From NCBI GenBank assembly GCA_963758445.1, contig CAVWVR010000005.1, positions 21,414 to 85,413 of the forward strand: a stretch of DNA of 64,000 nt, given 5' to 3'. This document shows, in pieces, positions 32,588 to 49,793 of the stretch. How positions within the stretch are numbered: position 1 is the stretch's first letter; every line of letters starts with the position of its first letter. The position numbers were made by a program, and so were the translations under genes. Under the pieces are notes generated by a model, which was not told where the DNA came from, did no database searches, and worked only from the letters and a program-made list of their open reading frames with translations. The stretch is from Terriglobia bacterium (GTDB lineage: Bacteria > Acidobacteriota > Terriglobia > Bryobacterales > Bryobacteraceae).

Positions 32588-32802
32588 AGAGTAAAATGCT
32601 TGTTACTAAGTTCCGTTACTAACTCAACGCCCACAGATTCGTTGCGGAGAAGAATCAGAGTCCGATGCCCCAAGTAAACACACACTTGGGAGGATCGGAC
32701 GGTTTCAATTCCCTGCAGAGCAAGAAATCCGCTGCGATCGATCCGGATCTGAAGAGCCGAAAACGATTGCGGAGCTATGAGTTAGAAACGGATTGTTAAG
32801 TG

Positions 32803-32875
32803 AGTCGATAGCGGGAGTCGAACCCGCGAATCCACAGAGCCCGAGTCTGTTGCTCTACCACTGAGCTATATCGTC
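32803..32875 (-). tRNA. tRNA-Pro (anticodon CGG)
   Basis: Manual fold of the minus-strand sequence GACGATA-TA-GCTC-AGTGGTA-GAGC-A-ACAGA-CTCGGGC-TCTGT-GGATTC-GCGGG-TTCGACT-CCCGC-TATCGAC-T. Cloverleaf with anticodon CGG, U33 and G37. There is one A-A mismatch at acceptor pair 2-71. No CCA is encoded. Confidence 0.8.
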
Positions 32876-33045: not shown

Positions 33046-34431
33046 TCACTTAGTCGGACTTACTCGAAAGAGCGCGGATGCGTGGGCGCGCAGACTAACG
33101 TGCAGAGTGTCACTATTTCCTAGATCTTTCTTTTCCCAAAGATCGCGAACCGCGAACGCTACGCTCGGCAAACCTAGCGACTGCAATGGGTAATCCACCG
33201 TTTGCGCGCCATCCGCCGTATTGAAAACCGCCACGTAAGCTGAGCCGCGCTCGCCCCGTGCAACCCACACAACCTTTCCCGCATCATCCAGGACCTGTCG
33301 CCCGCCCATAGAATGTTGATCAACCGCAATGACCTCGTCATTCGTCAACAACGCAAGCGTGCCACTGTCCAAGCGTGTCAGATTAGCGCCGATAACCAGC
33401 GGCGAACGGAAGATGCACCACAACGTCATGAGCGTGCGTGCCTCATCGGATGTCAGGGCGCTCTCCCGCGCTTTTCCGAAACCCGGCCGCGGTCCCAGAT
33501 ATCCCAGGGGCAACATGTCCGCGTCCGGCCAATTCCCTGTTCCCACTAATGGCGCCCATCTTGCGGCCATTCCAAACTGCGCCAGCACTCCCTGCGACCA
33601 GTCCGCCTTGGGCCACTGCGCCCAGTGATCCCAAACATCATTGGAAATTCGCCACATCTGCGCGTACTTGCGGAGTTCGTCAATTTGGTTAATCGGAGTC
33701 GGCCCGGGCGAAAGGCTCAACACAATCCGCCGTTTCGTCTTGCGCAGCGCCTCGCTGAACATCCGGATCTCATCGCCTTTGTACGGCGATGAAATGCAAT
33801 CTATCTTTACCAGGTCTACGCCCCAGCTTGCATACAGCGCGGCAACCGAGTCGTAATAGGCTTGGCCTGCAGCATTCGCAGCTACGCCGTAATTATCGGC
33901 ATTCCAACTACACGTATCACCCTTGTTCGCCGCTTCTGCAGCGTGAAACCGCGACCCGGCAATCGGCAAGTTCTTCGCTACCGCCTCTCGCGGGATACCG
34001 CGCACAATGTGGATTCCGAAAAGCAGCTGTCTGCTGTGAATCTCCTGGGCGAGCTTTGAAAACCCGGCGTTTCCGTCAGCCGAAGGAAAACGATTTAGCG
34101 CCGGCGTGTTTCGCCCGTAGCCGTCCATCGTGTACTCGAACGTGCCCGGCTTCGCTTCAGGGTTCTGCAGAAACCAACCCTCATCCACCACCGCGTATTG
34201 CCATCCATGCGCCCGTAGATTCGCAACCATGGAGTCGGCGTTCGCCAGAAATTCTTGCTGAGTGACACTTAGCCCGTATGCGTCCCAACTGTTCCAGCCC
34301 ATCGGCGGAGTCGGCGCAATCAATGGTCCAGTTTGCCCGAACCCAGCGCTTACCTTGAGTAAAAAGAGTGAACAACAGAAGATTCGGCTAAACATTCGAA
34401 CGCAGTCTATCGCAAACATACAAAATCTCAT
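33046..34431 (-). CDS. Alpha-galactosidase, glycoside hydrolase family 27
   Basis: Signal peptide. PPMGWNSWDAYG and DEGWF motifs and GVDLVKIDC are characteristic of GH27 alpha-galactosidases. The true start may be the internal ATG near 34395. Confidence 0.85.
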   Translation of the reverse strand: MRFCMFAIDCVRMFSRIFCCSLFLLKVSAGFGQTGPLIAPTPPMGWNSWDAYGLSVTQQEFLANADSMVANLRAHGWQYAVVDEGWFLQNPEAKPGTFEYTMDGYGRNTPALNRFPSADGNAGFSKLAQEIHSRQLLFGIHIVRGIPREAVAKNLPIAGSRFHAAEAANKGDTCSWNADNYGVAANAAGQAYYDSVAALYASWGVDLVKIDCISSPYKGDEIRMFSEALRKTKRRIVLSLSPGPTPINQIDELRKYAQMWRISNDVWDHWAQWPKADWSQGVLAQFGMAARWAPLVGTGNWPDADMLPLGYLGPRPGFGKARESALTSDEARTLMTLWCIFRSPLVIGANLTRLDSGTLALLTNDEVIAVDQHSMGGRQVLDDAGKVVWVARGERGSAYVAVFNTADGAQTVDYPLQSLGLPSVAFAVRDLWEKKDLGNSDTLHVSLRAHASALFRVSPTK

Positions 34432-34483
34432 AGCCGTACCGATCCTTCACCTGCTAAAAATAGTTTCGACAAGGACAGAAGCC

Positions 34484-35326
34484 ATGCCATGCGATCCCGA
34501 TCTCCTCAAAAATGTACCCATCTTTGCGTTACTGGACGATGACGAACTCGCCGTGTTGGCAAGCCAGGTGGAGCACAAGACCTTTGCTCCCCGCCAGCGA
34601 ATCTACAAAATGAATGACACCAATGGCCAGGCGTATATTCTCCTAGCCGGGCTTGTGCATGTCACTACGGTTGACGAAGATCAGCAGGAAGTCATCGTGG
34701 ATCAACCAGCCGCCGGCGAGTTCTTTGGCTTCGCCTCCATGCTTGACCAAACGCCGCATCAGACAAACGCAACCGCCCTGGATAAGTGTGAATGCATCGA
34801 GGTCGATCGAAACGATATCTCGGTGCTGTTGCAGCGCAAGCCGCTAGCCGGCATGGATCTGCTCGCGGTGCTAGGCCGTCAGTTTCATGCGGCGCAGCAA
34901 CTCGTCCGCATTCGCGCCCGGCGCAACCCGAACGAGGTCATCGAAGAAGAAGCAACCTTTGGTAATCGCGTGGCCGACCGGGTCGCAGGTTTCGGTGGTT
35001 CGTGGACGTTCATCATAAACTTTCTGGTTGCAATAGCAATTTACTCGATCATCAACATTGTGTTAGGCAGGAATGCGTGGGATCCGTACCCGTTCATCCT
35101 GCTGAACCTTTTTCTCTCCATGCTGGCTGCCGTCCAGGCGCCCGTCATCATGATGAGCCAGAACCGGCAGGATCAGAAAGACCGGCTCCGTAGCGAACTC
35201 GATTATGATGTGAATCGCCGCGCCGAGTCGGAGATTCAAGGCTTAGCGCGCAAGCTGAATCTGGTAACCGACAAGCTCGATGATTTAGAAGGATTGCTCA
35301 GAGAAAAGCGGCAGCTGGAAGCATGA
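34484..35326 (+). CDS. Cyclic-nucleotide-binding domain protein fused to a DUF1003-type membrane domain
   Basis: N-terminal cNMP-binding fold (FFGFASML, a glycine-rich phosphate-binding-cassette-like region). The C-terminal half has two TM helices and a charged coiled-coil tail. Start chosen at internal ATG 34484. Confidence 0.65.
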   Translation: MPCDPDLLKNVPIFALLDDDELAVLASQVEHKTFAPRQRIYKMNDTNGQAYILLAGLVHVTTVDEDQQEVIVDQPAAGEFFGFASMLDQTPHQTNATALDKCECIEVDRNDISVLLQRKPLAGMDLLAVLGRQFHAAQQLVRIRARRNPNEVIEEEATFGNRVADRVAGFGGSWTFIINFLVAIAIYSIINIVLGRNAWDPYPFILLNLFLSMLAAVQAPVIMMSQNRQDQKDRLRSELDYDVNRRAESEIQGLARKLNLVTDKLDDLEGLLREKRQLEA

Positions 35327-35382: not shown

Positions 35383-37563
35383 TTATCGGCATTCATCGGG
35401 ACCAGCGATTGCGGCCCACTGCCCCCAAGCCGTGCCTGTATCCGAAGCTGTCACTCGGACCCGTTCTGTTGCCGGCGGGATCGCAATGCGCCAGAAACTC
35501 CATCGCGTGGCGTCATCCTCCATCGGAGCCGTGGCAATCACTTGGCTTGACTTGTCATCAGTCAGCGTTACCGAAAGACCATCCACGCGCGGGCCGTGCA
35601 AAACCGGCAGGATTATGCAGTGATTCGCCGGGATTGAAAACACCGAAGATTGCCACTGCCCGGTGTCCCGGTCGGAGCCGCCCCAACTGCTGTATATTGG
35701 CCCGGCGGGCAATTCGCCTGAAATCACAACTGGAAAACGCGCTTCAGTCCACGGCCCTGAGCCCGACCACGTCAACCCGGCGAGTGCCGGACCTGCGTCC
35801 TTGAGGCTTACAGGAGCAGTGTCTGGAAGTGGAATATTTTCAGCCAGCGGGAACAGACCTCCGCCCGCATCGGCAATATATACGGATAGCTTCTGAACTG
35901 AATACCGGAGGTTCACAAAACCCACCCACCCTAAGGACGGAGGCACGTTGTGCGCCGGTATATCTCGCGGAAACCCCGCCGGAAATCTTTCACCAAGTCC
36001 GACAATCTGACCTTGTTCGTTCGCCAGTATGACCCACCTGTATGTGCGCTGTAAGTTGCTCGGATCCGCCCAACCCGCAACTTCGACGCCCGAGGCCACT
36101 GGGTACATGAATGCGACTGCTCCTGGCATGTGTGCGGTCGAAACGGAAGCATAGCCTCTCACGCTCTTACCTAACCACCGCCCCAGGTATTTGTAGTAAA
36201 TGGAAAGTTTATTTTCCTGCAATTGCCGGTCATACACTCTCACGAACTCAAATGATGGAAATATCATTCGCACCAGAGTGTCGTCCATTAGTCCATTCTG
36301 CAGGCTGAGTGCTACCATTTGGTACTTCGCAAAGTAAGTTGCGTCATCCGCAAGCCAAGGCTGCAAACTGCTAAGTCCGAGCGCCAATACGCCTGCAACA
36401 AACGCGGCAAACACGGGAACTAGCTTGCCAAGACGCGCTCCCAACTCGAATACCCAGAAATAAATCAGAATTGTGACTCCCCAATTCAATAGAGGTATCG
36501 TCAGGTATCGAGGAGCCAATGCCGCCCCCACTCTCGGATCGCTCGGATCCATTCTCCCTGCCGCAGTGATTACGATCGTGGAAAGTGTAAACGCATAGGT
36601 CCCGAAGAAGACCAGAGCGGGGCGAGCGGAAAGCATGCCTCGGCGCCAGGCAATTGTGCCTGCAGTAACTACGCTGAAACAGTTGAACCAGCCAATACAG
36701 ATTCCCATGGTCGGCACTGTCATTTCGGGATAATTGGTTATCTCTGTAAATGGCATTCCGAGATACGCGCCAAGGAATTCAAGGAAGTAGATTGGGTTTG
36801 AAGTCAAGTAAGATAGATGAGTCTCTTTCGAAAACTTATAACCAATGAAGTAAGTTCCACCAATAATAATCGCGGAGGCAATCAGAATCGCTACATCGCT
36901 TGGCTTAACGCGCATCAGTAGCGCTCCGCCTATCAAAATAGGCCAGACCGAGAGGCCATTACCGGAAGAATACGTCGCTACAGATGCGGCGACAATCGCG
37001 TAGGCTAAGTGCTTCTTGTGGCCGCTTTGCGTAAACAGTGCAAGAAAAGACAGCGCGCATACTACCGAAAGTTGTGCCAGCGTCCACTGCATCAAAAACG
37101 GAGTAGCCAGAACCGTGGCGCTTCCCTGCCAGAAGACCACAACGGCGGCTAACAAAATAGCAAGGACTCTGGTGTAGGCGGCAGTCCTCTTTTCTGACCA
37201 GAAGTTCGCCGCAAGCACCGCAAAGGCCAAGCCGTAGGAAAAAAAACTCACCATGATGGGGAGCGTTTGTCGGCCATGCAGCATCAACATGTCCAGTGCA
37301 AAGATGATTTCCGGAAAAATGATCCGGTGCTCATTGTGCTGTCGCCACAAGGCCGGAAGATACAAGTGTTGATAGGCGCCAAGATTTTCTACCGTGCGCC
37401 AGTAATCCCAAACAGGCAATGCACAGTAATAATGGACTATCCGCTCTACTGTTTGAACTCCGCTTAGCACCGCCCAAACAGCCAACACGAAGAGCAACAG
37501 CGCAAGGACATGCCCGCGCAGTTTCTCAAATGGAGCAGAAATCTGATGCTCGTTATTCATCAT
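35383..37563 (-). CDS. Large polytopic membrane protein with a C-terminal soluble domain (possible GT-C-type glycosyltransferase; unassigned)
   Basis: 726 aa. About 12-14 TM helices in the N-terminal 430 aa, followed by a 300-aa periplasmic-like domain. No diagnostic motif recognised. Confidence 0.45.
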   Translation of the reverse strand: MMNNEHQISAPFEKLRGHVLALLLFVLAVWAVLSGVQTVERIVHYYCALPVWDYWRTVENLGAYQHLYLPALWRQHNEHRIIFPEIIFALDMLMLHGRQTLPIMVSFFSYGLAFAVLAANFWSEKRTAAYTRVLAILLAAVVVFWQGSATVLATPFLMQWTLAQLSVVCALSFLALFTQSGHKKHLAYAIVAASVATYSSGNGLSVWPILIGGALLMRVKPSDVAILIASAIIIGGTYFIGYKFSKETHLSYLTSNPIYFLEFLGAYLGMPFTEITNYPEMTVPTMGICIGWFNCFSVVTAGTIAWRRGMLSARPALVFFGTYAFTLSTIVITAAGRMDPSDPRVGAALAPRYLTIPLLNWGVTILIYFWVFELGARLGKLVPVFAAFVAGVLALGLSSLQPWLADDATYFAKYQMVALSLQNGLMDDTLVRMIFPSFEFVRVYDRQLQENKLSIYYKYLGRWLGKSVRGYASVSTAHMPGAVAFMYPVASGVEVAGWADPSNLQRTYRWVILANEQGQIVGLGERFPAGFPRDIPAHNVPPSLGWVGFVNLRYSVQKLSVYIADAGGGLFPLAENIPLPDTAPVSLKDAGPALAGLTWSGSGPWTEARFPVVISGELPAGPIYSSWGGSDRDTGQWQSSVFSIPANHCIILPVLHGPRVDGLSVTLTDDKSSQVIATAPMEDDATRWSFWRIAIPPATERVRVTASDTGTAWGQWAAIAGPDECR

Positions 37564-37703: not shown

Positions 37704-40700
37704 CTATGGATGCGGCACTAACTGCCAGACCTGGTTAGGTCCACCAAGGTAGTCGTACTGCTGAATGAGCGTTCCATCCGTGCCCGAACCGCCGGTAACA
37801 TCCAGAACGCGGCCGGTGAACTTATTCACGATCGAATAGTATCCATCCACGCCGGTCGGCACAAACGCCCACTTTTGATTGTCTCCGCCCACATAATCAT
37901 ACTGCTGAACATTCGTACCGTTGGCGACATTTGAGTCGACGACATCCAGCACCAGGCCGCTGTGGATGTTCACAATCTCGTAATAGGTGCTGTCAACCGG
38001 AATCAGTTGCCAAAGTTGGTTCGCTCCGCCCAGGTAGTCCCACTCCTGAATGAGCGTCCCGTCTTGAGTAGAAGCACCCGTAACGTCAAGCACTTTTCCC
38101 GTTTCGAAATTCACGATACTGTACTTCTGTGTCGGTATCAGCGCCCAATTCTGGTTCGCGTCCCCCGCCGCCTGATATTGCTGCACGAGCGTGCCGTTCT
38201 GAGTGGCGCCTCCCGTATCATCCAGAAGCAAACCGCTATTCACATTTGTGATTGTGTAAAAACCACTCACGCTTGGCGTCAGAATCCACTGTTGATTGGG
38301 ATTACCCAGGTAAGACCATTGCTGAATCGTAGTACCGTTAACAGTGGACTCGCCGGTAACATCCAATGCCAACCCGCTGTTCAGATTCATAATCACGTAG
38401 TAACCGCCAGGAATGGGCACCAACGCCCACTTCTGATTGTTTGCGCCCAAATTGTCGTATAGCTGAATCGGGGCGCCGTTCGAAATAGAACCGTTCGTCA
38501 CGTCCAATACTCGTCCACTCTGCTGATTTGCGATTTCGTAAACCGCTCCACTGACCCCAGTGAGCGCAACTGTTTGCGATGCGCCGTCTACATTGTCAGA
38601 GATGAGAAGCGTAGCCGTCTCCATGGCCGTCGTGCTCGGCATGTAGGTGACCGTAATCGTGCAGCTCTTGGAGATAACGCCTTGACAATTGTTCGTGAAG
38701 CTGAAGTCCGAAGCGTTCGGCCCCATTATGGAAACCCTATTGATTATCAGCAACACGCTGTTGGGATTTGAGACCGTAATCGTGCCCGATTGACTAGGCG
38801 ACCCGTTAGCCGCATTGAGAACCAGGTTCGTGGGATTAAGCAGCATAGCCGCCGTCGTTAGACCGGCCCCGGGCGGCCCGCTCGCAACGTATGCACCTGG
38901 AAGGCCAACCGGAATGGTGGCTGTGTTGCTGATGAATGCATTTTGCGCGATGTAAAGTTGCGTCGTACCATTTACGGGCAGATCGGACGGCACAACCATT
39001 TGGATATTGTAAATTCCGTAACCCGCCTGCACCAACCCCGCGGTGATAACCTCCGCCGTTTCGCTATTCATCGTAGCCGTAACGCTGTTTACAGCCGAAT
39101 TAAGTACCGGGCCGTACCAGGGCTCTCCTGTTGCCACAGTAAGAACATTTGAATTGATATCCTGCACCGTCCCGAGCCCCGTCCCGGACACCGTGATCAG
39201 TTCGCCAGGTACCGCCGGATTACCCGCCGTGATGGGGCTGCCCGGAGTAACTGCGCAGCAGGTGGATGATGTGTAAGCAGTGATGGTGACCGTGGCGCTT
39301 GCGCTGCTGGTACCTGTGATTGGAATGCCGGTTCCTCCCACCCCGCTCTTAATGGCGGTCAGAATGATGCGCTGGAAAGCGCCTCCCAGTGATGCAGTCA
39401 CATTCGCATCCGGCGCGCCGTTGATCATGTTTACTAAGTTCTGTGCGATCGATAAAAGAGTGTCGGTGGATACGACTGTGTACGTGTAAGTTGCGGAACC
39501 GATCGTAATAGTCGCCGTGTTCCCCGCCGTCACCGCCCCGTCCACCGAAACAACAGCCGTCGGATTACCTGGTTGATGATAGGCATTGATCACCGGCCAA
39601 GGCCGCGGCTGACCGGAAAATGCCGGCGAGCTGAACAAGCCGGGATTCGCGGGCGCAATGTACATCGGTGTCGCGTTCGTCACCGTAACCGATCCGTCGT
39701 TGTGTGCCGTTCGCACATAGATACTGGTGCTGTTACGGTCCGTAACTGCGCTGGCTCCAACAGTGGCCGCGTTCTCATCGCTTCCGTTCACGTACGTAAA
39801 TGGAATTTCCGTGATGATTTGCGTGGGCGACACACTTAGAATCGGCGAAGCGTTGCCGTCCATGAAAACCTCAACTCCGCCCAGCGACGTCGGAAGAGCG
39901 CCAGTCAGAGAAGTCGCAGTCGTGTTGTCCGACAAGTTGCTCCCGTCGATTTCTACCAACATGCCGGCCGCACCCGTTCCCGCATTGCCGGCCGCCAGGT
40001 AACTACCCGAAGCTGTAGCCGTTATGTCCGTCGCGCTCGATGTCGAAGCGGCCAACGTGATCGAGTCAAAAGTCAGGTTTATCGCCTTCGAAGCCAGATA
40101 CACACTACCCGTGCCTACGCCCGCGAATAACGCCGTGGCATTTGGATCACCCGCCCCCGAATTTGAGCTATTGATAGCCTTTGTAATTCCCTGCGCGATC
40201 GTATCCAATGTGTCGCTTTTCACGATCGTGTAAGTGTAAGCAGTTCCTAGAATCGTGATGGTGACGGTATCGCCTGCCGTAATCGCCCCTCCGCTGGGCA
40301 ACGTGAACGTAACGATTCCCTCTTGGCGAATGATTTCGCTCGCCCAGTTCACGGCCGCCCTGGGCGGCAGCGGGGTATCGGCCGGCGTATACACGACAAC
40401 GCGGTCGTTGTACGGGTCGCTCACATACAAGTTCGTGCCATCAAAAGCGAGTGAAGTGGGAGAAGAAACAATGTCCACGCCACTGGTGTTGTCCACCAGC
40501 GTGCTGGTGATGCTGATGTTTGTGCTGGTGTCCTGATCGCTGACGAAATCCACTTGCCCCAGAACTTCATCGGCTGCGGCGCCGTCCTGCGTCGGAATCG
40601 TGTTGTAAATCAGCACCCGATCGTTACCGCCGTCGGCAATAAACAGCCGCGTCCCATCGGACAGCGCGTAGCGTGGGAAGTTCAATGTGTTTTGACAGGG

Positions 40701-41747
40701 CGTGAAATTGTCGCCGCCGCAAAAATAGCTGCTCCAATTAGGTACCGCCGTGGTCAGGTTGGGCTGTCCAATTACCACATCGGCATTCTGATCGTTGCTC
40801 AAATTGAGTTGCCCGTTCACAAACGCCGTGTTCCAGATCAACACTCGGTTGTTTCCCAGGTCGGCAACATAAAGCCGCGTTCCGTCGGAAGTAACTGACG
40901 TCGGATTCAGCAGCAGATTGCCGGCCGTCGTCGGATAGGTCGCGGTGGTAATCGGTGGCTGATAAACGGTGCTGAAATTCGACTGCCCCAGCACCAGATC
41001 CGCCGGCTGATTGTTCTGTGTCGGAATGTGTCTCCAGATCAGAATGCGGTAGTTCTGTGTGTCGGCGACAAACAGAGCCCCGTTTTGAATCCAGACCCCT
41101 TGCGGACCGCGCAGAGAGTTTGAGTTCACAGGTTGCGGAGTCTGGAAGCTCGTAAAACTCGACTGCCCTATTACGATACTCGGCGCCGCATTGTTCGTTG
41201 TCGGAATACTATTCCAGATCAGCACGCGATTGTTGTCGGTATCCGCAATCGCCAGATACGTTCCGTCACTCGCAACAGCCGTGGGCGTCTCCATGCTGCC
41301 CGCTTCTGCAGTGCTTCCATTCGCGGGCACTGCCACCTGAGCGCGCCCCGGATTGTTGCTCACAAAATCAGGCTGCCCCAGGACAATGCTGGCGCTGTAA
41401 CCGCAAAGGCTGCAGACGGCCGGCGTCGAAGTCGCGGGAGTTATGGTAGTCAGATCTGCGTACGGACCGGGAATCTGGCTCGTTGGAAAACCTAAAACTC
41501 GATTGTTCTGCGGCGTGGCGGCAATGCGGTTTGAATCCGCAACCCACAGCGTCCCATTCGCATACGCGAGGCCACTCGCGCCGCCAATCAGATTCGATGC
41601 CGTGCCCTGCTGGCCGGTGGTAAAGTTCTGCGGCTGCCCAACCTCCGCGCGCGCGGCTTGGCCATTTACAAATGTCTTTTGCGCGCTAACTACACCAGAA
41701 AATAGGAAAAAAAGAGAGAGTATGCTCTTTCGCAAACAAAGCCCCAA
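37704..41747 (-). CDS. Secreted 1347-aa NHL-repeat beta-propeller protein with Ig-like middle region and two C-terminal ricin-B (beta-trefoil) lectin domains
   Basis: Signal peptide. Repeated NNRVLIWN / NYRILIW / NDRVLIYN NHL motifs. The C-terminal 280 aa carry six Q-x-W repeats (QKW, QQW, QNW, QLW, QKW, QVW) typical of ricin-B lectin. Confidence 0.8.
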   Translation of the reverse strand: MGLCLRKSILSLFFLFSGVVSAQKTFVNGQAARAEVGQPQNFTTGQQGTASNLIGGASGLAYANGTLWVADSNRIAATPQNNRVLGFPTSQIPGPYADLTTITPATSTPAVCSLCGYSASIVLGQPDFVSNNPGRAQVAVPANGSTAEAGSMETPTAVASDGTYLAIADTDNNRVLIWNSIPTTNNAAPSIVIGQSSFTSFQTPQPVNSNSLRGPQGVWIQNGALFVADTQNYRILIWRHIPTQNNQPADLVLGQSNFSTVYQPPITTATYPTTAGNLLLNPTSVTSDGTRLYVADLGNNRVLIWNTAFVNGQLNLSNDQNADVVIGQPNLTTAVPNWSSYFCGGDNFTPCQNTLNFPRYALSDGTRLFIADGGNDRVLIYNTIPTQDGAAADEVLGQVDFVSDQDTSTNISITSTLVDNTSGVDIVSSPTSLAFDGTNLYVSDPYNDRVVVYTPADTPLPPRAAVNWASEIIRQEGIVTFTLPSGGAITAGDTVTITILGTAYTYTIVKSDTLDTIAQGITKAINSSNSGAGDPNATALFAGVGTGSVYLASKAINLTFDSITLAASTSSATDITATASGSYLAAGNAGTGAAGMLVEIDGSNLSDNTTATSLTGALPTSLGGVEVFMDGNASPILSVSPTQIITEIPFTYVNGSDENAATVGASAVTDRNSTSIYVRTAHNDGSVTVTNATPMYIAPANPGLFSSPAFSGQPRPWPVINAYHQPGNPTAVVSVDGAVTAGNTATITIGSATYTYTVVSTDTLLSIAQNLVNMINGAPDANVTASLGGAFQRIILTAIKSGVGGTGIPITGTSSASATVTITAYTSSTCCAVTPGSPITAGNPAVPGELITVSGTGLGTVQDINSNVLTVATGEPWYGPVLNSAVNSVTATMNSETAEVITAGLVQAGYGIYNIQMVVPSDLPVNGTTQLYIAQNAFISNTATIPVGLPGAYVASGPPGAGLTTAAMLLNPTNLVLNAANGSPSQSGTITVSNPNSVLLIINRVSIMGPNASDFSFTNNCQGVISKSCTITVTYMPSTTAMETATLLISDNVDGASQTVALTGVSGAVYEIANQQSGRVLDVTNGSISNGAPIQLYDNLGANNQKWALVPIPGGYYVIMNLNSGLALDVTGESTVNGTTIQQWSYLGNPNQQWILTPSVSGFYTITNVNSGLLLDDTGGATQNGTLVQQYQAAGDANQNWALIPTQKYSIVNFETGKVLDVTGASTQDGTLIQEWDYLGGANQLWQLIPVDSTYYEIVNIHSGLVLDVVDSNVANGTNVQQYDYVGGDNQKWAFVPTGVDGYYSIVNKFTGRVLDVTGGSGTDGTLIQQYDYLGGPNQVWQLVPHP

Positions 41748-41929: not shown

Positions 41930-42538
41930 ATGACGAAGATCAACTTGCCTCTGCTGTTCGTGCCGCTCATGGCTATTTGCTCCTGCAACAAGCCCGCAAA
42001 CCCGCCGTCTGGCGCTCTCTCAGCATCAACATCAACGGTCAACTCGCCCCCGGCTGATTACACGCCCAAAATCGGTATCGCCGTCAGCACGCCTTCACGA
42101 ACTTGTATGGCCATTCACAACGGTAACCTCATGAACGGCGCTGTTGTGACCTTGGTTTCAGCCATTGCGCCTGTAACCTATACGCCAGCGACCATATCCG
42201 GCGTCTCACAGCAGCCTTGCCCTATCACGCAGAATGTAGATACCACGGTTTCGAACTACAATCTCACCGTCCAAGGTCCCATCCAGAAGCTGACTCCGAT
42301 GATTGCTGTGCTCGGCAGTCCGGCAATCACGATCAACAACAACATCGCGCAAGCCGATCTCGATCAAAACGGAAAATCCCAAAGCTTTCGCGCCTGCAGT
42401 TCAGACAACGGCATACATCTCAGCGTCTGGAGCGGCGCGCCGCTACAAGGAACCATGCTTTGGCAAGCCTTCTACTACGAGTCAGGAAATCCCGGCGTCG
42501 GCCCAGCTTGCACACCGTCTGAAGTGCCCGCGTCCTGA
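41930..42538 (+). CDS. Hypothetical lipoprotein
   Basis: Signal peptide with lipobox LMAICSC. No other recognisable domain. Confidence 0.4.
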   Translation: MTKINLPLLFVPLMAICSCNKPANPPSGALSASTSTVNSPPADYTPKIGIAVSTPSRTCMAIHNGNLMNGAVVTLVSAIAPVTYTPATISGVSQQPCPITQNVDTTVSNYNLTVQGPIQKLTPMIAVLGSPAITINNNIAQADLDQNGKSQSFRACSSDNGIHLSVWSGAPLQGTMLWQAFYYESGNPGVGPACTPSEVPAS

Positions 42539-43639: not shown

Positions 43640-46600
43640 ATGCCTAAGAAAAAGGCAGCCGTGCCGAGCTTCCTTAAGCTACAAACGACCTTAAAGCGCG
43701 AGAAAACGTGCCATGTAACCCGGATTGCGTGGTCGAATCGTGGCGATCTGCTTGCCGTTCCCACACAGGACGGTACCGTCGAACTTTGGCTTGCCGGCGA
43801 CGGCAGGCGGACCTTCGAAATAGTGGTGAGGCAAGGCAACTGGACGACGGATGTAGCTTGGGCGCCGGACGACAAGATTCTCGCCACTCTGTCGGGCGAT
43901 GAGCTCGTCAGGCTGTGGAGAGTACCGAACGCTAAGCGCATTTTTTCCCGGCTTGGGGAAAGCGTTCACATCGAAGCAACGGCGTTAGCATGGTCGCCCG
44001 ACGGCAAATTCCTCATAACTTGCAAAGGAACGGCAGTGCAGGCCTGGGATACGGATACCTGGCGCAAGGCGCACGTGGCGGAGATGGGGTCTCCGGCTAC
44101 CTTCCTGGTGTTCTCTAAGGCTGGCCGGCTTGCCATCTGTACTCGCGATGGTGCCGTCTACATAACTGATTCGTCCTTGACACACCAAAGCCTGGCAACC
44201 CAGCACAACCGGCCGGCGGTAACCGCGGCTTGGTCGCCAGATGGCGAGATCCTTGCCTTGGGCCACTCCTATGGAGACCTCCAGACGTTCGATGTGTCAG
44301 TGGGACGCGTCACCCAAACCATCGAAGGGCATACCAAGACAGTTCGCTCTGTGTCTATATCGGCCAACGGGCAACTGCTCGCTTCCAAGTCTGACGACGG
44401 CAAGGTCTGGCTGTGGGATCTTCGGACCGGCATGCCTGTCGAGGGAATCGATGAGCCGTTCGGCGGGGTGAAAGATAGCAGCACAAGAAAGCCGGGGGCA
44501 ATTGCTTTCCATCCGCAACTCCCGCTCTTGGCAACCCTGGATGCGGGTAATCACAACGTTCGGCTTTGGAATGTCGATATTGGCAGCCTTCAGAGCGTTC
44601 CGTTGCCCGCCCAGGAAGCTGATCCGGCAATCCGGTACACCACCGCAAAAATCGTTCTGGTCGGCGATAGTGGGGTCGGTAAGACCGGTCTTGGCTGGCG
44701 GCTTGCCCATGGCGAATTCAAAGAACACTCCTCCACCCACGGGCAGCAGTTCTGGGTTCTGAACCAGCTCCATTCAGTCCGCGCTGATGGAACTGAGTGT
44801 GAGGCTGTCCTATGGGATCTCGCAGGCCAGGCGGATTATCGCCTGACGCATGCCCTGTTCCTGGAAAAAGTGGATGCGGCTCTGGTTCTGTTTGACCCCG
44901 GAAATCAAATCGACCCGCTTAAAGGCGTGCGCTACTGGCTAAACGCTCTGGACCGCGACACCCACAAACCCATACCCAAGATACTCGTCGGCGCACGCGA
45001 GGATCGTGCAGCTTCGACTCTTACACCAGCCGATCTGATGCAGTTTTGCAACGACAAGCAAATTAGTGGCGGCGCCCGGTTCTGCAGTGCCATGACGGGC
45101 AAGGGCATTCAGGAACTCCTGGATAGTTTGAGCGCTGCTGTTCACTGGGACGAAATGACCGCTACCACCACCACCAGTAATTTCAAGCGCGTCAAAGACT
45201 TCGTTCTGAATGCGAAACAGAGTGACGCTACCCGAGTGCTCCTGAGTCCGGCCGAACTCGAACAACAACTGCACGCCGTTGATCGGGCCTGGAAATTCTC
45301 AGCCGCAGAGATGATGACCGCGGTTCACCATCTGGCCAATCATGGCTACGTTTCGATACTGCCAAGGTCGTCTGGCGATCAAAGCATTTTGATGTTCCCG
45401 CAAGTGCAATCTAATCTTGCCGCTTCGTTTGTACTTGAGGCGCGCAGGCATCCCAATGGGCTGGGCGCGCTTGAAGAGACTCGGCTGCTTCGTGGTGAGT
45501 ATCAGTTTCCGGAAATCGCTAACTTGTCGGCCCACGACCGCGAGACCCTCCTCGACTCCACCGTGGCCCTGTTTTTACAGCGCAATATCTGTTTCCGGGA
45601 GCGGCTTGGCCCATCCACCCTCCTGGTGTTTCCGGCGCTTATCAATCAGCGCAAGCCGCCGACGGAATATGCTTTCGCCGACGACGTGTCTTACGTCATC
45701 AGCGGACCAGTGGAAAACGTCTATGCGGCACTAGTGGTTCTTTTGGGCTACACCAACACATTCACCCGTACAAACCATTGGCAGAATCAAGCCGAGTACG
45801 AGATGAATCCGGGCGAGATATGCGGGTTCAGACAAATATCGGAACAGGACGGTGAAATCGAGCTGGTCCACTATTACAGTCCGGAAGCAGGGCCCGAAGT
45901 GCGTTCTCTGTTTCAGGCGCTGTTTGAAGGTTTTCTGCGCAGCCGTAAAGTCACGGTCAAGAAATATGCTCCCGTGTTTTGCCCGGAGTGTCATGAGCGA
46001 GCCGAGCGTGCCGCAGTGCTCAAACGCTTGCGCGACCATAAGCCGTTTTTGTTCTGCGCGAATTGCGGAGCCCAGGTCCGCCTTGTAGGCGAGGATAGCC
46101 AGCCCGGTGTTACCGGTCAGCGAGCCGAAATTTTAACTGCGGACAAAGAGATCGCGCGCCGCCGAACCGCTTTCGAAGCTGCGCTCGGCAGAATCAAGGC
46201 GCTTATTCGGGATAGAAATCAACAACCGACGCCCTCCTGTTTCATCAGCTATGCGTGGGGAGTGTCTGCTCACGAGAAACGCGTGTTGCAGTTAGCTAAA
46301 GACCTGGAGAGGGCCGATGTAAACGTTCTGATCGATCGGCAGAGCAACGCCAGAATCGGCGCGAGCGTGGCCGATTTTGTAGACAAATTGGATGCCGTTG
46401 ATTTCGTAATCGTAGTTGGCACGCCCGAGTACCTGCACAAGTATCAATCGCGAGATCAAAAGTACGGCCATGTTGTCAGCGCTGAAATCGATCTGATTCA
46501 GGACCGGCTAACCGGCTCCAGACGCCACTCGGTACTCCCCGCGCTCCTGGCCGGGGACGGACCTACTTCCTTTCCGCCTCTTCTTCGCGGCGCCGTGCGA

Positions 46601-46750
46601 GGGGATCTGGTTACAGAAGCAAAGTATTTCTCAACCGTTGTCGATCTGATTCTCAGCATGTTCCAACTCCCATTTGAAGATCCGATCATCTCCAACATTC
46701 GGGCCGAATCGAACGTTGAGGATTGGAACTCCTCTGTTAGTCTCGCTTGA
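43640..46750 (+). CDS. WD40 - Roc small GTPase - COR-like - zinc ribbon - TIR-like multidomain protein (ROCO-family with TIR effector domain)
   Basis: WD40 repeats aa ~25-330. P-loop GDSGVGKTG (nt 44663-44689) and DLAGQ (nt 44816-44830). A winged-helix-like COR region aa ~510-770. CPEC...CANC (nt 45980-46066). C-terminal CFISYAWG...VIVVGTPEYL...VVSAEIDL resembling TIR_2 (aa ~865-1000). Confidence 0.75.
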   Translation: MPKKKAAVPSFLKLQTTLKREKTCHVTRIAWSNRGDLLAVPTQDGTVELWLAGDGRRTFEIVVRQGNWTTDVAWAPDDKILATLSGDELVRLWRVPNAKRIFSRLGESVHIEATALAWSPDGKFLITCKGTAVQAWDTDTWRKAHVAEMGSPATFLVFSKAGRLAICTRDGAVYITDSSLTHQSLATQHNRPAVTAAWSPDGEILALGHSYGDLQTFDVSVGRVTQTIEGHTKTVRSVSISANGQLLASKSDDGKVWLWDLRTGMPVEGIDEPFGGVKDSSTRKPGAIAFHPQLPLLATLDAGNHNVRLWNVDIGSLQSVPLPAQEADPAIRYTTAKIVLVGDSGVGKTGLGWRLAHGEFKEHSSTHGQQFWVLNQLHSVRADGTECEAVLWDLAGQADYRLTHALFLEKVDAALVLFDPGNQIDPLKGVRYWLNALDRDTHKPIPKILVGAREDRAASTLTPADLMQFCNDKQISGGARFCSAMTGKGIQELLDSLSAAVHWDEMTATTTTSNFKRVKDFVLNAKQSDATRVLLSPAELEQQLHAVDRAWKFSAAEMMTAVHHLANHGYVSILPRSSGDQSILMFPQVQSNLAASFVLEARRHPNGLGALEETRLLRGEYQFPEIANLSAHDRETLLDSTVALFLQRNICFRERLGPSTLLVFPALINQRKPPTEYAFADDVSYVISGPVENVYAALVVLLGYTNTFTRTNHWQNQAEYEMNPGEICGFRQISEQDGEIELVHYYSPEAGPEVRSLFQALFEGFLRSRKVTVKKYAPVFCPECHERAERAAVLKRLRDHKPFLFCANCGAQVRLVGEDSQPGVTGQRAEILTADKEIARRRTAFEAALGRIKALIRDRNQQPTPSCFISYAWGVSAHEKRVLQLAKDLERADVNVLIDRQSNARIGASVADFVDKLDAVDFVIVVGTPEYLHKYQSRDQKYGHVVSAEIDLIQDRLTGSRRHSVLPALLAGDGPTSFPPLLRGAVRGDLVTEAKYFSTVVDLILSMFQLPFEDPIISNIRAESNVEDWNSSVSLA

Positions 46751-46830: not shown

Positions 46831-47286
46831 ATGCCTCTACTCGACAAAATTCAGAAAGACATGGTCGAAGCCATGAAAGCGAAGGAGGAGGCCCGGCTCA
46901 GTGCGCTGCGCATGATCAAGACGGCTCTGAAGAAACACGAAGTGGATTCCATGAAGCCGCTGAACGAAGCCACCGAAATGCAGATCATGGGCACGCTTAT
47001 CAAACAGCGCCATGAATCGGCCGACATGTTCCGCAAAGGCGGCCGTGAAGAATTGGCCGTGCTCGAAGAAGCCGAAATCCGCCTCATCGAAAGCTATCTG
47101 CCCGCAACCGCTTCTCAGGACGAAATGGAAGCCGCCGTTGCCGCCGCGATCTCGGAAACGGGCGCCACATCGTCGAAGCAAATGGGTCTGGTAATGAAAG
47201 CCGCTCAGGCCCGTCTCGCCGGCAAGCGCATTGAGGGCAAAGAGCTGAGCGACCTGGTCAAAAAGAAGCTCACCCCGGCGACTTAA
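46831..47286 (+). CDS. yqeY: GatB/YqeY domain protein
   Basis: 152 aa, MPLLDKIQKDMVEAMKAKEEARLSALRMIKTAL is a typical YqeY N-terminus. Start chosen at the internal ATG. Confidence 0.8.
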   Translation: MPLLDKIQKDMVEAMKAKEEARLSALRMIKTALKKHEVDSMKPLNEATEMQIMGTLIKQRHESADMFRKGGREELAVLEEAEIRLIESYLPATASQDEMEAAVAAAISETGATSSKQMGLVMKAAQARLAGKRIEGKELSDLVKKKLTPAT

Positions 47287-49793
47287 GTCGCCGACTTAGA
47301 AGCCGCCGGAGGGGTAACGTTCGGAACATCCAGCGGCAGCACAGGGTAACCTTCATCGCAGTCGCTAAACGGCTCCGCATTTTTTGGCTGCCCAGTATGG
47401 GCTTGCTGGGCAGCTTGCGACTGCGGCTTGCCGCGGCACACCAGAATCTGCTTCAGGCCCGCCGTGGGATCCGGAACCGCAGGCGCCTTGGCAAGGGGAT
47501 GCTTACCTTTCTTGACCGGCTTCGGCGCAGGAGGGTCTGGCTTCACTAAGCGAACCGTCGCGAATGTATCTCCGGAGCTTTTGATAAAGCAGCCGCCGCA
47601 CTTTGGAAATTCCAGCCTCAAATCCTGGAGCCCGCTTCCCTCCAAAGCGAGGGTGAGTCCATTTTGGGATGAGACTACGCTCAGCTTCGACACTATGGGA
47701 GCAGTCTTCGCAAAAATTGTGGGAGGTATCGGTTTGCTGTCCCGATAAGTATCGGGCCATAGCAACCGGCGCACTTCGACGCTGCTCGAAGTTCGAATAA
47801 GCTCCGTTGGCGCCAGAACTGTTATGGAACTGTCGTCCTGCGCGAAAAAGGGCGCATCGCTCAATCCGAAAATTTTGTCTCCAATGACCACTAACCATGG
47901 GTTTTCCCCACTCCGCCGTTTCAAGGCGGCATTTGCAAGCACTACTCCGGGCATCGACTCCTTGGGTAATAAAACTCCTATTTTGACTTTGCTCAGCGTG
48001 TCGGAATACGGAGTAATATCCAACCATTTGACCGTCAGTTGTTTTTCCTGATAGGCGCGTTGTTCAACCACCGGCTGTTGCCGATTATCCCGTCCTACCA
48101 GGTAAACGCCTTCAGCCGCGAGGATTGCCTTCGCCGGGACATCGAAGGTAAGTGCATCATGCGTTGTTGTTATAGTCGTCGGATTCAAAAACGTGCTGCC
48201 CACGCGGACCAGGGAACCGGGGAGAAAGGTGCCCGTCGCATTCACGTGTACATTACCTTGTCCAATATCCGTGACCGTAACTTCATCGGTGCGTTGTGAC
48301 GTGCTGTAGTAACTGATCGGGTAACATACCGGACCTTGCCGATCCACCGCCCGCCCCAGATAATTCCCCTTCTTGTCTCCTACCCGCCAATGGACGCTCA
48401 CGCAAGCGGTTCCGATCTCCTGAGTCGGCGAACCGTTATTGGGAACCCCTGGGACTGACACTTGTACGAAACTGGTCGAGTCGCCAGGCCGCAGAAAAGG
48501 ATTGCCTAACACGGGGCGAATCTGCCAGGCAAAAGACACGTCAGGGCTGCCGTCTTTGCAAAGACGGGATGGCCGCATCATCGCCACTGTCTCTTGCTGC
48601 TGGACAAGATAGTAAGTCTTGTGCCCCCAAAGAAAGGAGCCACCCACGTTGACAACACCGCCCAAGACCGCACTTATACTTCCCAAAAACGATTTATCCA
48701 CTAAGCTTGCAACGTTGTAAGTACGCTCTTGCGGAAGCAGAGTAACTACACTCGGAGACTCTAATGTCGATTCTGCACATACAGAAATTTCTATTTCTGC
48801 CACCGCGTTCTCTAACTTCTTGTCGTCCGGCGAAGGCGGCGTAACGGTAATCGGGAACCCAAGAGTAAAAGTAGTCTTAGGCTTCCCGTTAGTCTGCAAG
48901 TGATCGCTCACCGCGCCGCCAAGCAGAAGCTGCGTGTTCATGATTTCGTATGAAAGCTGAAGCGATTCGTTGTATGTCGCAAGCGACGAGCCGTTCACAG
49001 TAGGAGGCGCTAACGTTGGGGCTGGTGGTGTGGGCGCCGTCGGAGTGAGGCCCCCGACTGTCGTTGTCGTTCCCGGAGTCGTTGTGGTGGGATTCCCGGT
49101 CGACCCGAACGCAGGCACGCCGGCGGCAGGCGTAAAAGTGGAAGTACCTGGCGTCGGCGGACTGGAGGCGGACAATGCTACCGAAGTCTGGCGAATGTCG
49201 GCTCCCTGCACACCGCCGATGTGACTTAACAGCGTCGACTGATCAACCCCGTGAACTGCCGCTAACTGACCCTGCAGCATGAGAAGTTGGTTCTGCAAAT
49301 ACAAGTCGTCGTAAACCTTGGGGGCTCCCACAACCAGCATCATGCTGGTAACTGATGGCGGCGTTGTTGGGCTGGGCGTTTTGACTGGCTGATTCTCCGA
49401 CCTGCAAACTTCAACCACCACGGAAGCTGGTGCAATCCGGCTCCAGCACGAATTTGTAGCCTTCCCTACTTTGACCAAAGCATCGTTGACCGAATCGCCT
49501 TCTATGTCCACCGACGCTGACTGGATGGCCTGTTCGCGGTCATATGCCGGATCAAACCGAATCTGGAGTCCGGTTGCAGCCGCTAATGCTTCAAACAGAG
49601 CCCGTGGCGGTTGCTCAATTACTTTCAACGTGACGGGGCTATTCAGTCGCTGACTATCTGCCGCCGGAAGTGCCGCTGCCTGCCGCGGGCGTGCCTCCGC
49701 AGCGAGCACACTCATCATCAGCATGAGACAGAACAAGATTGGTGCTTTGGGGAGGTGGGACAAAATAGAGCTCCTATTAACTGCTCGCGTCAA
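47283..49793 (-). CDS. Secreted 836-aa hypothetical protein with an N-terminal STN-like domain and Thr/Pro-rich linker
   Basis: Signal peptide. VTLKVIEQPPRALFEALAAATGLQIRFDP resembles the STN (secretin/TonB N-terminal) domain. A PTTTTPGTTTT linker follows. The remainder is unassigned. Confidence 0.5.
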   Translation of the reverse strand: MTRAVNRSSILSHLPKAPILFCLMLMMSVLAAEARPRQAAALPAADSQRLNSPVTLKVIEQPPRALFEALAAATGLQIRFDPAYDREQAIQSASVDIEGDSVNDALVKVGKATNSCWSRIAPASVVVEVCRSENQPVKTPSPTTPPSVTSMMLVVGAPKVYDDLYLQNQLLMLQGQLAAVHGVDQSTLLSHIGGVQGADIRQTSVALSASSPPTPGTSTFTPAAGVPAFGSTGNPTTTTPGTTTTVGGLTPTAPTPPAPTLAPPTVNGSSLATYNESLQLSYEIMNTQLLLGGAVSDHLQTNGKPKTTFTLGFPITVTPPSPDDKKLENAVAEIEISVCAESTLESPSVVTLLPQERTYNVASLVDKSFLGSISAVLGGVVNVGGSFLWGHKTYYLVQQQETVAMMRPSRLCKDGSPDVSFAWQIRPVLGNPFLRPGDSTSFVQVSVPGVPNNGSPTQEIGTACVSVHWRVGDKKGNYLGRAVDRQGPVCYPISYYSTSQRTDEVTVTDIGQGNVHVNATGTFLPGSLVRVGSTFLNPTTITTTHDALTFDVPAKAILAAEGVYLVGRDNRQQPVVEQRAYQEKQLTVKWLDITPYSDTLSKVKIGVLLPKESMPGVVLANAALKRRSGENPWLVVIGDKIFGLSDAPFFAQDDSSITVLAPTELIRTSSSVEVRRLLWPDTYRDSKPIPPTIFAKTAPIVSKLSVVSSQNGLTLALEGSGLQDLRLEFPKCGGCFIKSSGDTFATVRLVKPDPPAPKPVKKGKHPLAKAPAVPDPTAGLKQILVCRGKPQSQAAQQAHTGQPKNAEPFSDCDEGYPVLPLDVPNVTPPAASKSAT

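Follow-up and report, generated by a model that had tools for sequence, protein, structure and literature searches.

What is the role of a large bacterial protein that carries an NHL beta-propeller at its N-terminus and two ricin-B lectin domains at its C-terminus? This question is raised by a 64,000-nucleotide stretch of the Terriglobia bacterium contig CAVWVR010000005.1 (positions 21,414 to 85,413; hereafter the window), in which an open reading frame (ORF) encodes such a protein. An original prediction, made from the letters of the window, had described its product as giant and secreted; with 1347 amino acids (aa), it is large rather than giant. Comparison with related loci revealed what is not visible from the window sequence alone, namely that the two ricin domains form one of several tails that can be exchanged behind a conserved, syntenic head of about 950 aa. 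We give about an even chance to the product being a secreted, probably non-catalytic protein that binds glycans or acts like an adhesin, its head staying constant while its targeting tail can be exchanged.

Replacement of the tail at a syntenic locus

Detectable relatives of the 1347-aa protein numbered 5592 (E <= 0.001). Close relatives were 50-78% identical over the first ~950 aa and differed at their C-terminal ends. A family scan using one genome per species (GTDB species representatives) yielded 232 loci, and titles and neighbourhoods were taken from the best 80 of these. The best 80 loci came from 80 different genomes, in line with a single copy per genome, and no paralog was found within the window. 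Nearly all of their titles referred to Bryobacteraceae, Bryobacterales, Terriglobia or 'Acidobacteriaceae', the exceptions being one Solirubrobacteraceae-labelled metagenome-assembled genome and the isolate KBS 96; the family is restricted to Bryobacteraceae. The former locus (L047, CBAAAA010000233.1), labelled 'uncultured Solirubrobacteraceae bacterium' (Actinomycetota), probably reflects a binning error rather than transfer. Among the same 80 loci, yqeY was located divergently upstream in 55, whatever the tail type, and serC and serA were found downstream in about 50. This shared context identifies the family loci as positional orthologs.

The tails were classified for 77 proteins: about 40 were Big_7-like, 19 were of the ricin type, 7 were FG-GAP, 3 consisted of a PCRxxDTR repeat, and 8 of other beta-rich repeats. 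The variants comprised ricin pairs, six or seven Big_7-like repeats, FG-GAP/VCBS, a BACON domain followed by PCRxxDTR...GYF units, an NPNPI...WVTDGMxFYLQD repeat, and almost tail-less forms. Two of the repeats are unnamed. The first, of ~100 aa ('NPNPI..G..TTLSW....V(E/Q)(I/V)H.GSP.G.LF....G...TG.WVTDGM.FYLQD'), was observed in L038, L050, L051, L064, L075, L076, and L083. The second, of ~110 aa ('PCR(V/I)xDTR...LSYLTVWP.G...P.VSTLN...G....N..IVP......I.V......V.LD..GYF.P'), was present in three copies after BACON in L011, L013, L018, L019, P0048, and P0100; a Pfam search of P0048 and P0100 returned nothing for this unit.

In a neighbour-joining tree of the heads, the tail types were polyphyletic. 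Locus L006, which has a Big_7 tail, was nested in the ricin clade of the window, with a head 77% identical to that of the window protein and the same neighbours, i.e. a glycoside hydrolase family 27 (GH27) protein (71% identity), a cyclic nucleotide monophosphate (cNMP)-binding/DUF1003 protein (87%), an abhydrolase (80%), and YqeY (88%). Similarly, L057 (ricin) was placed among Big_7 loci and L011 (PCRxxDTR repeat) among ricin loci. The point of divergence was sharp: between the window protein and P0012, identity was ~74% up to aa ~950 and ~18% beyond it, the break falling immediately past the motif AQNAFISN..IPVG, and P0011 retained the next domain (ASH, see below) and diverged beyond it. The polyphyly of the tails, together with these drops in identity, shows that tail replacement is recurrent and takes place at one or two junctions.

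No toxin or enzyme family was matched by profile scans of the window protein and six representative homologs, and the rest of the ~77 tails were made of binding-type repeats. Moreover, no orphan or spare tail cassette was found in the window, nor was any small immunity-like gene conserved downstream among the family loci, where serC and serA are the conserved genes.

Domain structure of the 1347-aa protein

The ORF starts at a TTG codon, just downstream of a GGGGGTGA-like purine-rich ribosome-binding site (Table 1). An identical public-database protein (P0001) is annotated with a length of 1343 aa, which an in-frame alternative TTG at 41735 would account for. A promoter and terminator scan at the gene revealed nothing exceeding shuffled expectation. 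The predicted signal peptide was borne out by the N-terminus, MGLCLRKSILSLFFLFSGVVSA followed by QKTF, which displays a basic n-region, a hydrophobic core (Kyte-Doolittle maximum of 2.56 at aa 9-20), and an A-x-A-like cleavage site between VSA and Q, with no lipobox cysteine in position. The consensus of 65 homologs (xRKxxxxxxxxLxAxxxxAQxF) shows the same pattern. As judged from these features, the protein carries a Sec-type, signal-peptidase-I signal peptide. In addition, its content of lysine, arginine, glutamate, and histidine is very low which, together with the signal peptide and conserved cysteine pairs, points to an extracytoplasmic protein.

Profile searches with hidden Markov models (HMMs) for NHL, Ig-like (immunoglobulin-like), and Ricin_B_lectin domains all returned matches, and structure prediction agreed for each of the three. 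The six NHL-type repeats originally proposed were recovered both by HMM (Pfam NHL, PF01436, E 1.1e-12, above the curated threshold) and by structure prediction, as a six-bladed fold whose blade motif, [A]D-x-x-N-[NDY]-R-[VI]-L-[IV]-[WYF], occurs at aa 81, 172, 232, 299, 375, and 447. Sequence searches of the head against the PDB gave marginal NHL matches only. Almost every invariant residue of the propeller falls within the blade motif that repeats (A-D-x-x-N-x-R-V-L-I-W ... P ... V-L-G-Q-x-x-F) or within one of two cysteine pairs, C112/C115 and C343/C351. The best structural matches were the non-catalytic NHL domains of TRIM71, NHLRC2, and SOQ1. Compared with these and with extracellular NHL propellers such as the Mycobacterium tuberculosis PknD sensor (1rwi) and teneurin, the window protein has longer blades with an additional A-D-x-V-L-G-Q-x-x-F and two disulfide-type loops, and lacks a kinase, TRIM, or thioredoxin partner domain. 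Peptidyl-alpha-hydroxyglycine alpha-amidating lyase (PAL), a catalytic NHL propeller, has a conserved histidine-based zinc site in the propeller cavity. Across 65 family sequences, the propeller columns contained no invariant or near-invariant histidine, which indicates that a PAL-type zinc site is absent; reading of the propeller sequence showed no acidic cluster on the inner strands of the blades.

The middle of the protein, previously described as a long Ig-like region, was found to be a tandem duplication (copies 37% identical, E 2e-14). The Ig-like description holds for one half of each unit, an IPT-like Ig domain; the other half, which precedes it, was predicted to be an alpha/beta module of ~110 aa. 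The core of the first module copy reads ...GDTVTITI-G-x-YTYTV-x-x-DTL-x-x-IA-x-x-L-x-x-IN..., and the T-C-C that ends the second copy is invariant (T365, C366, and C367 in alignment A2). The second Ig domain closes with LYIAQNAFISN..IPVG, a motif shared across the family; this is both where the conserved head stops and where tails are swapped.

Both IPT-like Ig domains match TIGR03437 (NCBIfam, 'Solibacter uncharacterized C-terminal domain'), an Acidobacteria family under whose name many of the homologs are labelled by JGI. The score was 60 bits for a cut-off of 29.05, with the best stretch at aa 831-947; of the two matched stretches, the second, whose position was not printed, was placed on Ig domain 1 by reading the sequence. 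Contrary to its name, the domain is not C-terminal here: it is interrupted by module copy 2 and followed by ~400 aa (the ASH Ig domain and two trefoils).

The alpha/beta module is rare, with 118 cluster representatives out of 1.84 billion at E <= 1e-3. A profile built from 36 diverse copies matched contractile phage tail sheath and related structural proteins within their exposed insertion domain, at chain residues ~82-190 (9mt4_Q, 3.4e-7; 9zdk_S, 6.7e-6; 9hz7_L, 1.5e-5; also 8fop_T, Mu 9khy, and A-1(L) 8kee). Pfam Phage_sheath_domII matched weakly (3 of 36 sequences, best E 0.018). By this profile comparison, the module may be related to the sheath insertion domain, with the difference that there is neither a sheath core nor a phage context here. 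Two other identities were discarded: LysM matched over profile positions 1 to 14-16 only ('YTYTV..GDTL..IA'), with E <= 1 in 2 of 36 module sequences, and Flagellin_IN matched weakly in 4 of 36 (best E 0.015). The module was also observed in 7-27 tandem copies in a few proteins; among them are very large metagenome proteins with 8-27 copies (P0225, of 3353 aa, P0262, P0286, P0227, P0283, and P0259), in three of which no Pfam family reached a significant stretch.

The tail of the window protein begins with an ASH domain, which is also present in some FG-GAP-tailed relatives, and continues with two ricin-B trefoils. The proposed pair of trefoils with six evenly spaced QxW motifs was strongly supported, by Pfam RicinB_lectin_2 (E 2.1e-97, 320.5 bits for a cut-off of 25.6) as well as Ricin_B_lectin (E 3e-32, 111.9 bits for a cut-off of 29). 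The six in-register motifs, three lobes per trefoil, are spaced 47, 47, 45, 47, and 48 aa apart, as fits trefoil lobes; two additional, out-of-register QxW (aa 1142 and 1234) coincide with the residue at the aromatic position. As in ricin-B/R-type lectins (PF00652, PF14200; CBM13), the trefoils are in tandem, each with three ~47-aa QxW lobes; the difference lies in the partner, which is a toxin A chain for the ricin B chain and a glycoside hydrolase for the CBM13 of Streptomyces xylanase 10A, and here an NHL-propeller/Ig head. The lobe alignment showed that all six lobes keep D-x12-[QE]-x-[YW]-x6-N-Q-x-W, whose positions we take to correspond to the sugar-site residues Asp22, Gln35, Trp37, Asn46, and Gln47 of ricin B. 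Up to six predicted sugar-binding lobes may thus be functional. Outside the family, the closest relatives of the ricin pair were fused to M10, M23, and astacin peptidases, GH5/16/32/43, GDSL lipases, and phosphatidylinositol-specific phospholipase C (PI-PLC); such a range of unrelated partners fits a generic targeting module. An attempt to deduce the sugar specificity from these relatives failed, the partner domains being too diverse.

Table 1. Features of the 1347-aa protein gene and of the adjacent membrane-protein gene in the window.
Feature	Coordinates	Strand	Residues (aa)	Remarks
NHL-propeller/ricin gene	37704..41747	minus	1-1347	ORF of 1347 codons from TTG; stop codon 37704-37706
Signal peptide	41682..41747	minus	1-22	Predicted from sequence features and family consensus
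Six-bladed NHL beta-propeller	40353..41678	minus	~24-465	HMM and structure prediction
Alpha/beta module copy 1	39978..40340	minus	470-590	Beta-hairpin, long helix, beta strands
IPT-like Ig domain 1	39633..39977	minus	~591-705	Resembles first half of TIGR03437; AF2 all-beta segment; within the duplication
Alpha/beta module copy 2	39243..39602	minus	716-835	Ends with invariant T-C-C
IPT-like Ig domain 2	38898..39242	minus	~836-950	Second half of TIGR03437
ASH / PapD-like (choice-of-anchor D) Ig domain	38583..38858	minus	964-1055	First element of the variable tail
Ricin-B beta-trefoil 1	38133..38552	minus	~1066-1205	QxW at aa 1105, 1152, 1199
Ricin-B beta-trefoil 2	37707..38132	minus	~1206-1347	QxW at aa 1244, 1291, 1339
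726-aa polytopic membrane protein	35383..37563	minus		92 homologs, mostly unnamed; the few source-named are Acidobacteria

Neighbouring genes

The large membrane protein pointed out next to the gene is real, conserved, and polytopic, with a length of 726 aa. Near its N-terminus lie an HNEHR motif (aa 76-80), which is invariant, and D91; R337 and R352 also stand out. No match was found in Pfam, NCBIfam, PADLOC, or PDB sequences, so that these searches gave nothing to bear out the suggested GT-C-like nature of the protein. The link between the two genes that had been implied proved weak: they occur together in 5 of about 80 loci (the window, L004, L009, L034, and L061), four of which have ricin tails, in varying orientation, and the membrane-protein gene is absent from L001, an ortholog locus with 71% identity. 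We therefore rejected this sporadic neighbour as a fixed functional partner.

In the window, as in L001 and L006, a gene for a GH27 alpha-galactosidase is found two genes away; being specific to this clade, it was also rejected as a general functional partner. In the window, a tRNA-Pro(CGG) gene (32802-32875, minus strand) adjoins the GH27 and cNMP-binding/DUF1003 genes (33046-35326). Most Bryobacteraceae have serC-serA after the NHL-head gene; in the clade of the window, the GH27 and cNMP-binding/DUF1003 genes take their place, a pattern suggestive of a rearrangement or insertion close to tRNA-Pro.

On the other side, the window contains a gene (43640-46750, plus strand) whose 1036-aa product combines a WD40 propeller at the N-terminus, a Roc/Ras-type GTPase domain (aa 337-499), and, at the C-terminus, a TIR domain (Pfam TIR_2, 3e-9; PADLOC bSEFIR, 1.1e-18). 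This gene sits between the abhydrolase gene and yqeY, which are adjacent in L001, the one related locus for which gene calls existed, and no homolog was found in any related locus retrieved. It looks like a genome-specific insertion, possibly of a TIR-based defence or signalling gene. Finally, no Pfam or PADLOC match was obtained for an 836-aa ORF (47283-49793, minus strand) or for a 202-aa ORF (41930-42538, plus strand); the latter is conserved upstream of the family gene in L004, L006, and L007 (62-64% identity).

Candidate roles and significance

The carbohydrate-targeting or surface-adhesin role originally suggested is consistent with the signal peptide, the six intact-looking lobes, and the binding-type, beta-rich nature of the alternative tails. 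In such a protein, exported by Sec as its signal peptide, disulfide-type cysteines, and composition suggest, the constant head of ~950 aa (propeller and two [module + Ig] units) would provide a lineage-specific interaction surface, and the C-terminal tail would act as an exchangeable targeting or attachment module that may set the head's site of action. The tail of the window protein would then combine an ASH Ig spacer with a potentially hexavalent R-type lectin pair, the Ig spacers holding the lectins off the head. Six lobes could bind a repetitive glycan by avidity, for example a plant or microbial polysaccharide or one from the cell's own matrix. Two points weigh against this reading. The surface-adhesin part is weakened by the lack of any recognisable anchor or outer-membrane secretion signal in the 1347-aa protein, so that the periplasm, the surface, and the medium are all candidate locations. 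Moreover, a constant domain with variable carbohydrate-binding modules (CBMs) is the classic layout of a carbohydrate-active enzyme (CAZyme).

This second point leads to the best of the alternatives, in our view an unlikely one, in which the head would be an undescribed propeller enzyme, e.g. a lyase, lactonase, or esterase that targets a polysaccharide or the decoration it bears, with tails serving as CBMs for different substrates. Such an arrangement would match that of modular CAZymes, in which ricin (CBM13-type) and BACON domains are typical appendages; elsewhere, hydrolases carry most of the nearest ricin pairs, and a GH27 gene is close by. However, the propeller has no invariant histidine, and its invariant residues, nearly all structural, form no conserved catalytic-looking constellation; its best structural matches are also non-catalytic. 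As for the GH27 gene, its linkage is confined to the clade of the window, whereas the family gene usually has housekeeping genes next to it (yqeY, serC, and serA).

This housekeeping neighbourhood, with one syntenic, vertically inherited copy of the gene per genome, would fit a structural protein of the cell envelope or matrix. In this alternative, which we regard as rather doubtful, the tail would anchor the protein to the cell's own fast-evolving glycan (O-antigen, capsule, or exopolysaccharide), with the head facing outward, and the repeated replacement of tails between close relatives would track the chemistry of the self-glycan. The middle region does resemble the domain strings of the S-layer proteins SbsB and SbsC, as well as the surface-decoration domains of phage sheaths and flagellin. 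Nevertheless, no S-layer or anchoring motif was found in the 1347-aa protein, and the S-layer likeness amounts to generic Ig stacking, with TM-scores of 0.10-0.16 when normalised to the query.

A polymorphic-toxin delivery or contact-dependent competition scaffold with the variable C-terminus as effector, also raised by the original prediction, is highly improbable, since the likeness to CdiA and Rhs is purely formal, the N-terminal bulk being conserved and the C-terminal region replaced between close relatives, whereas the window protein and the tails examined hold no toxin, nuclease, deaminase, or peptidase family, the variable parts are repetitive, beta-rich, binding-type domains, the immunity genes and orphan cassettes of such systems are missing, as described above, and the Pfam scan revealed no type V, VI, or VII secretion system, Rhs, or filamentous-haemagglutinin-type trafficking domain.

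Returning to the glycan-binding or adhesin-like protein, a more specific and distinctly speculative version is that the yqeY-linked, single-copy gene encodes a surface recognition device specific to Bryobacteraceae, whose tails are recombined at one junction after ...AQNAFISN..IPVG. If so, the tail type would set the partner of each species, be it a glycan of the species' own matrix, another cell nearby, or a substrate, by a logic analogous to that of phage receptor-binding proteins or kin-recognition receptors.

Full-text literature searches on TIGR03437, on Bryobacteraceae NHL repeats, and on secreted acidobacterial NHL proteins found no paper describing the family, and those on ricin or beta-trefoils found general lectin papers only. 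In databases, the members are labelled 'RICIN domain-containing protein', 'TIGR03437 family', or 'hypothetical'. The protein is an uncharacterised combination of known domain types, with no evidence of a new mechanism; modestly new are the recurrent swapping of tails at a syntenic, single-copy locus and the finding that an apparently secreted cellular protein carries a phage-sheath-insertion-like module.

Acidobacteria of peat and acid soils are abundant, poorly understood, and rich in large secreted proteins without an assigned role. This locus is a clean case of a conserved, syntenic, apparently exported protein whose putative binding end is exchanged between close relatives and, with an ortholog in the cultured strain KBS 96, it may offer a tractable entry to what Bryobacteraceae attach to or recognise.

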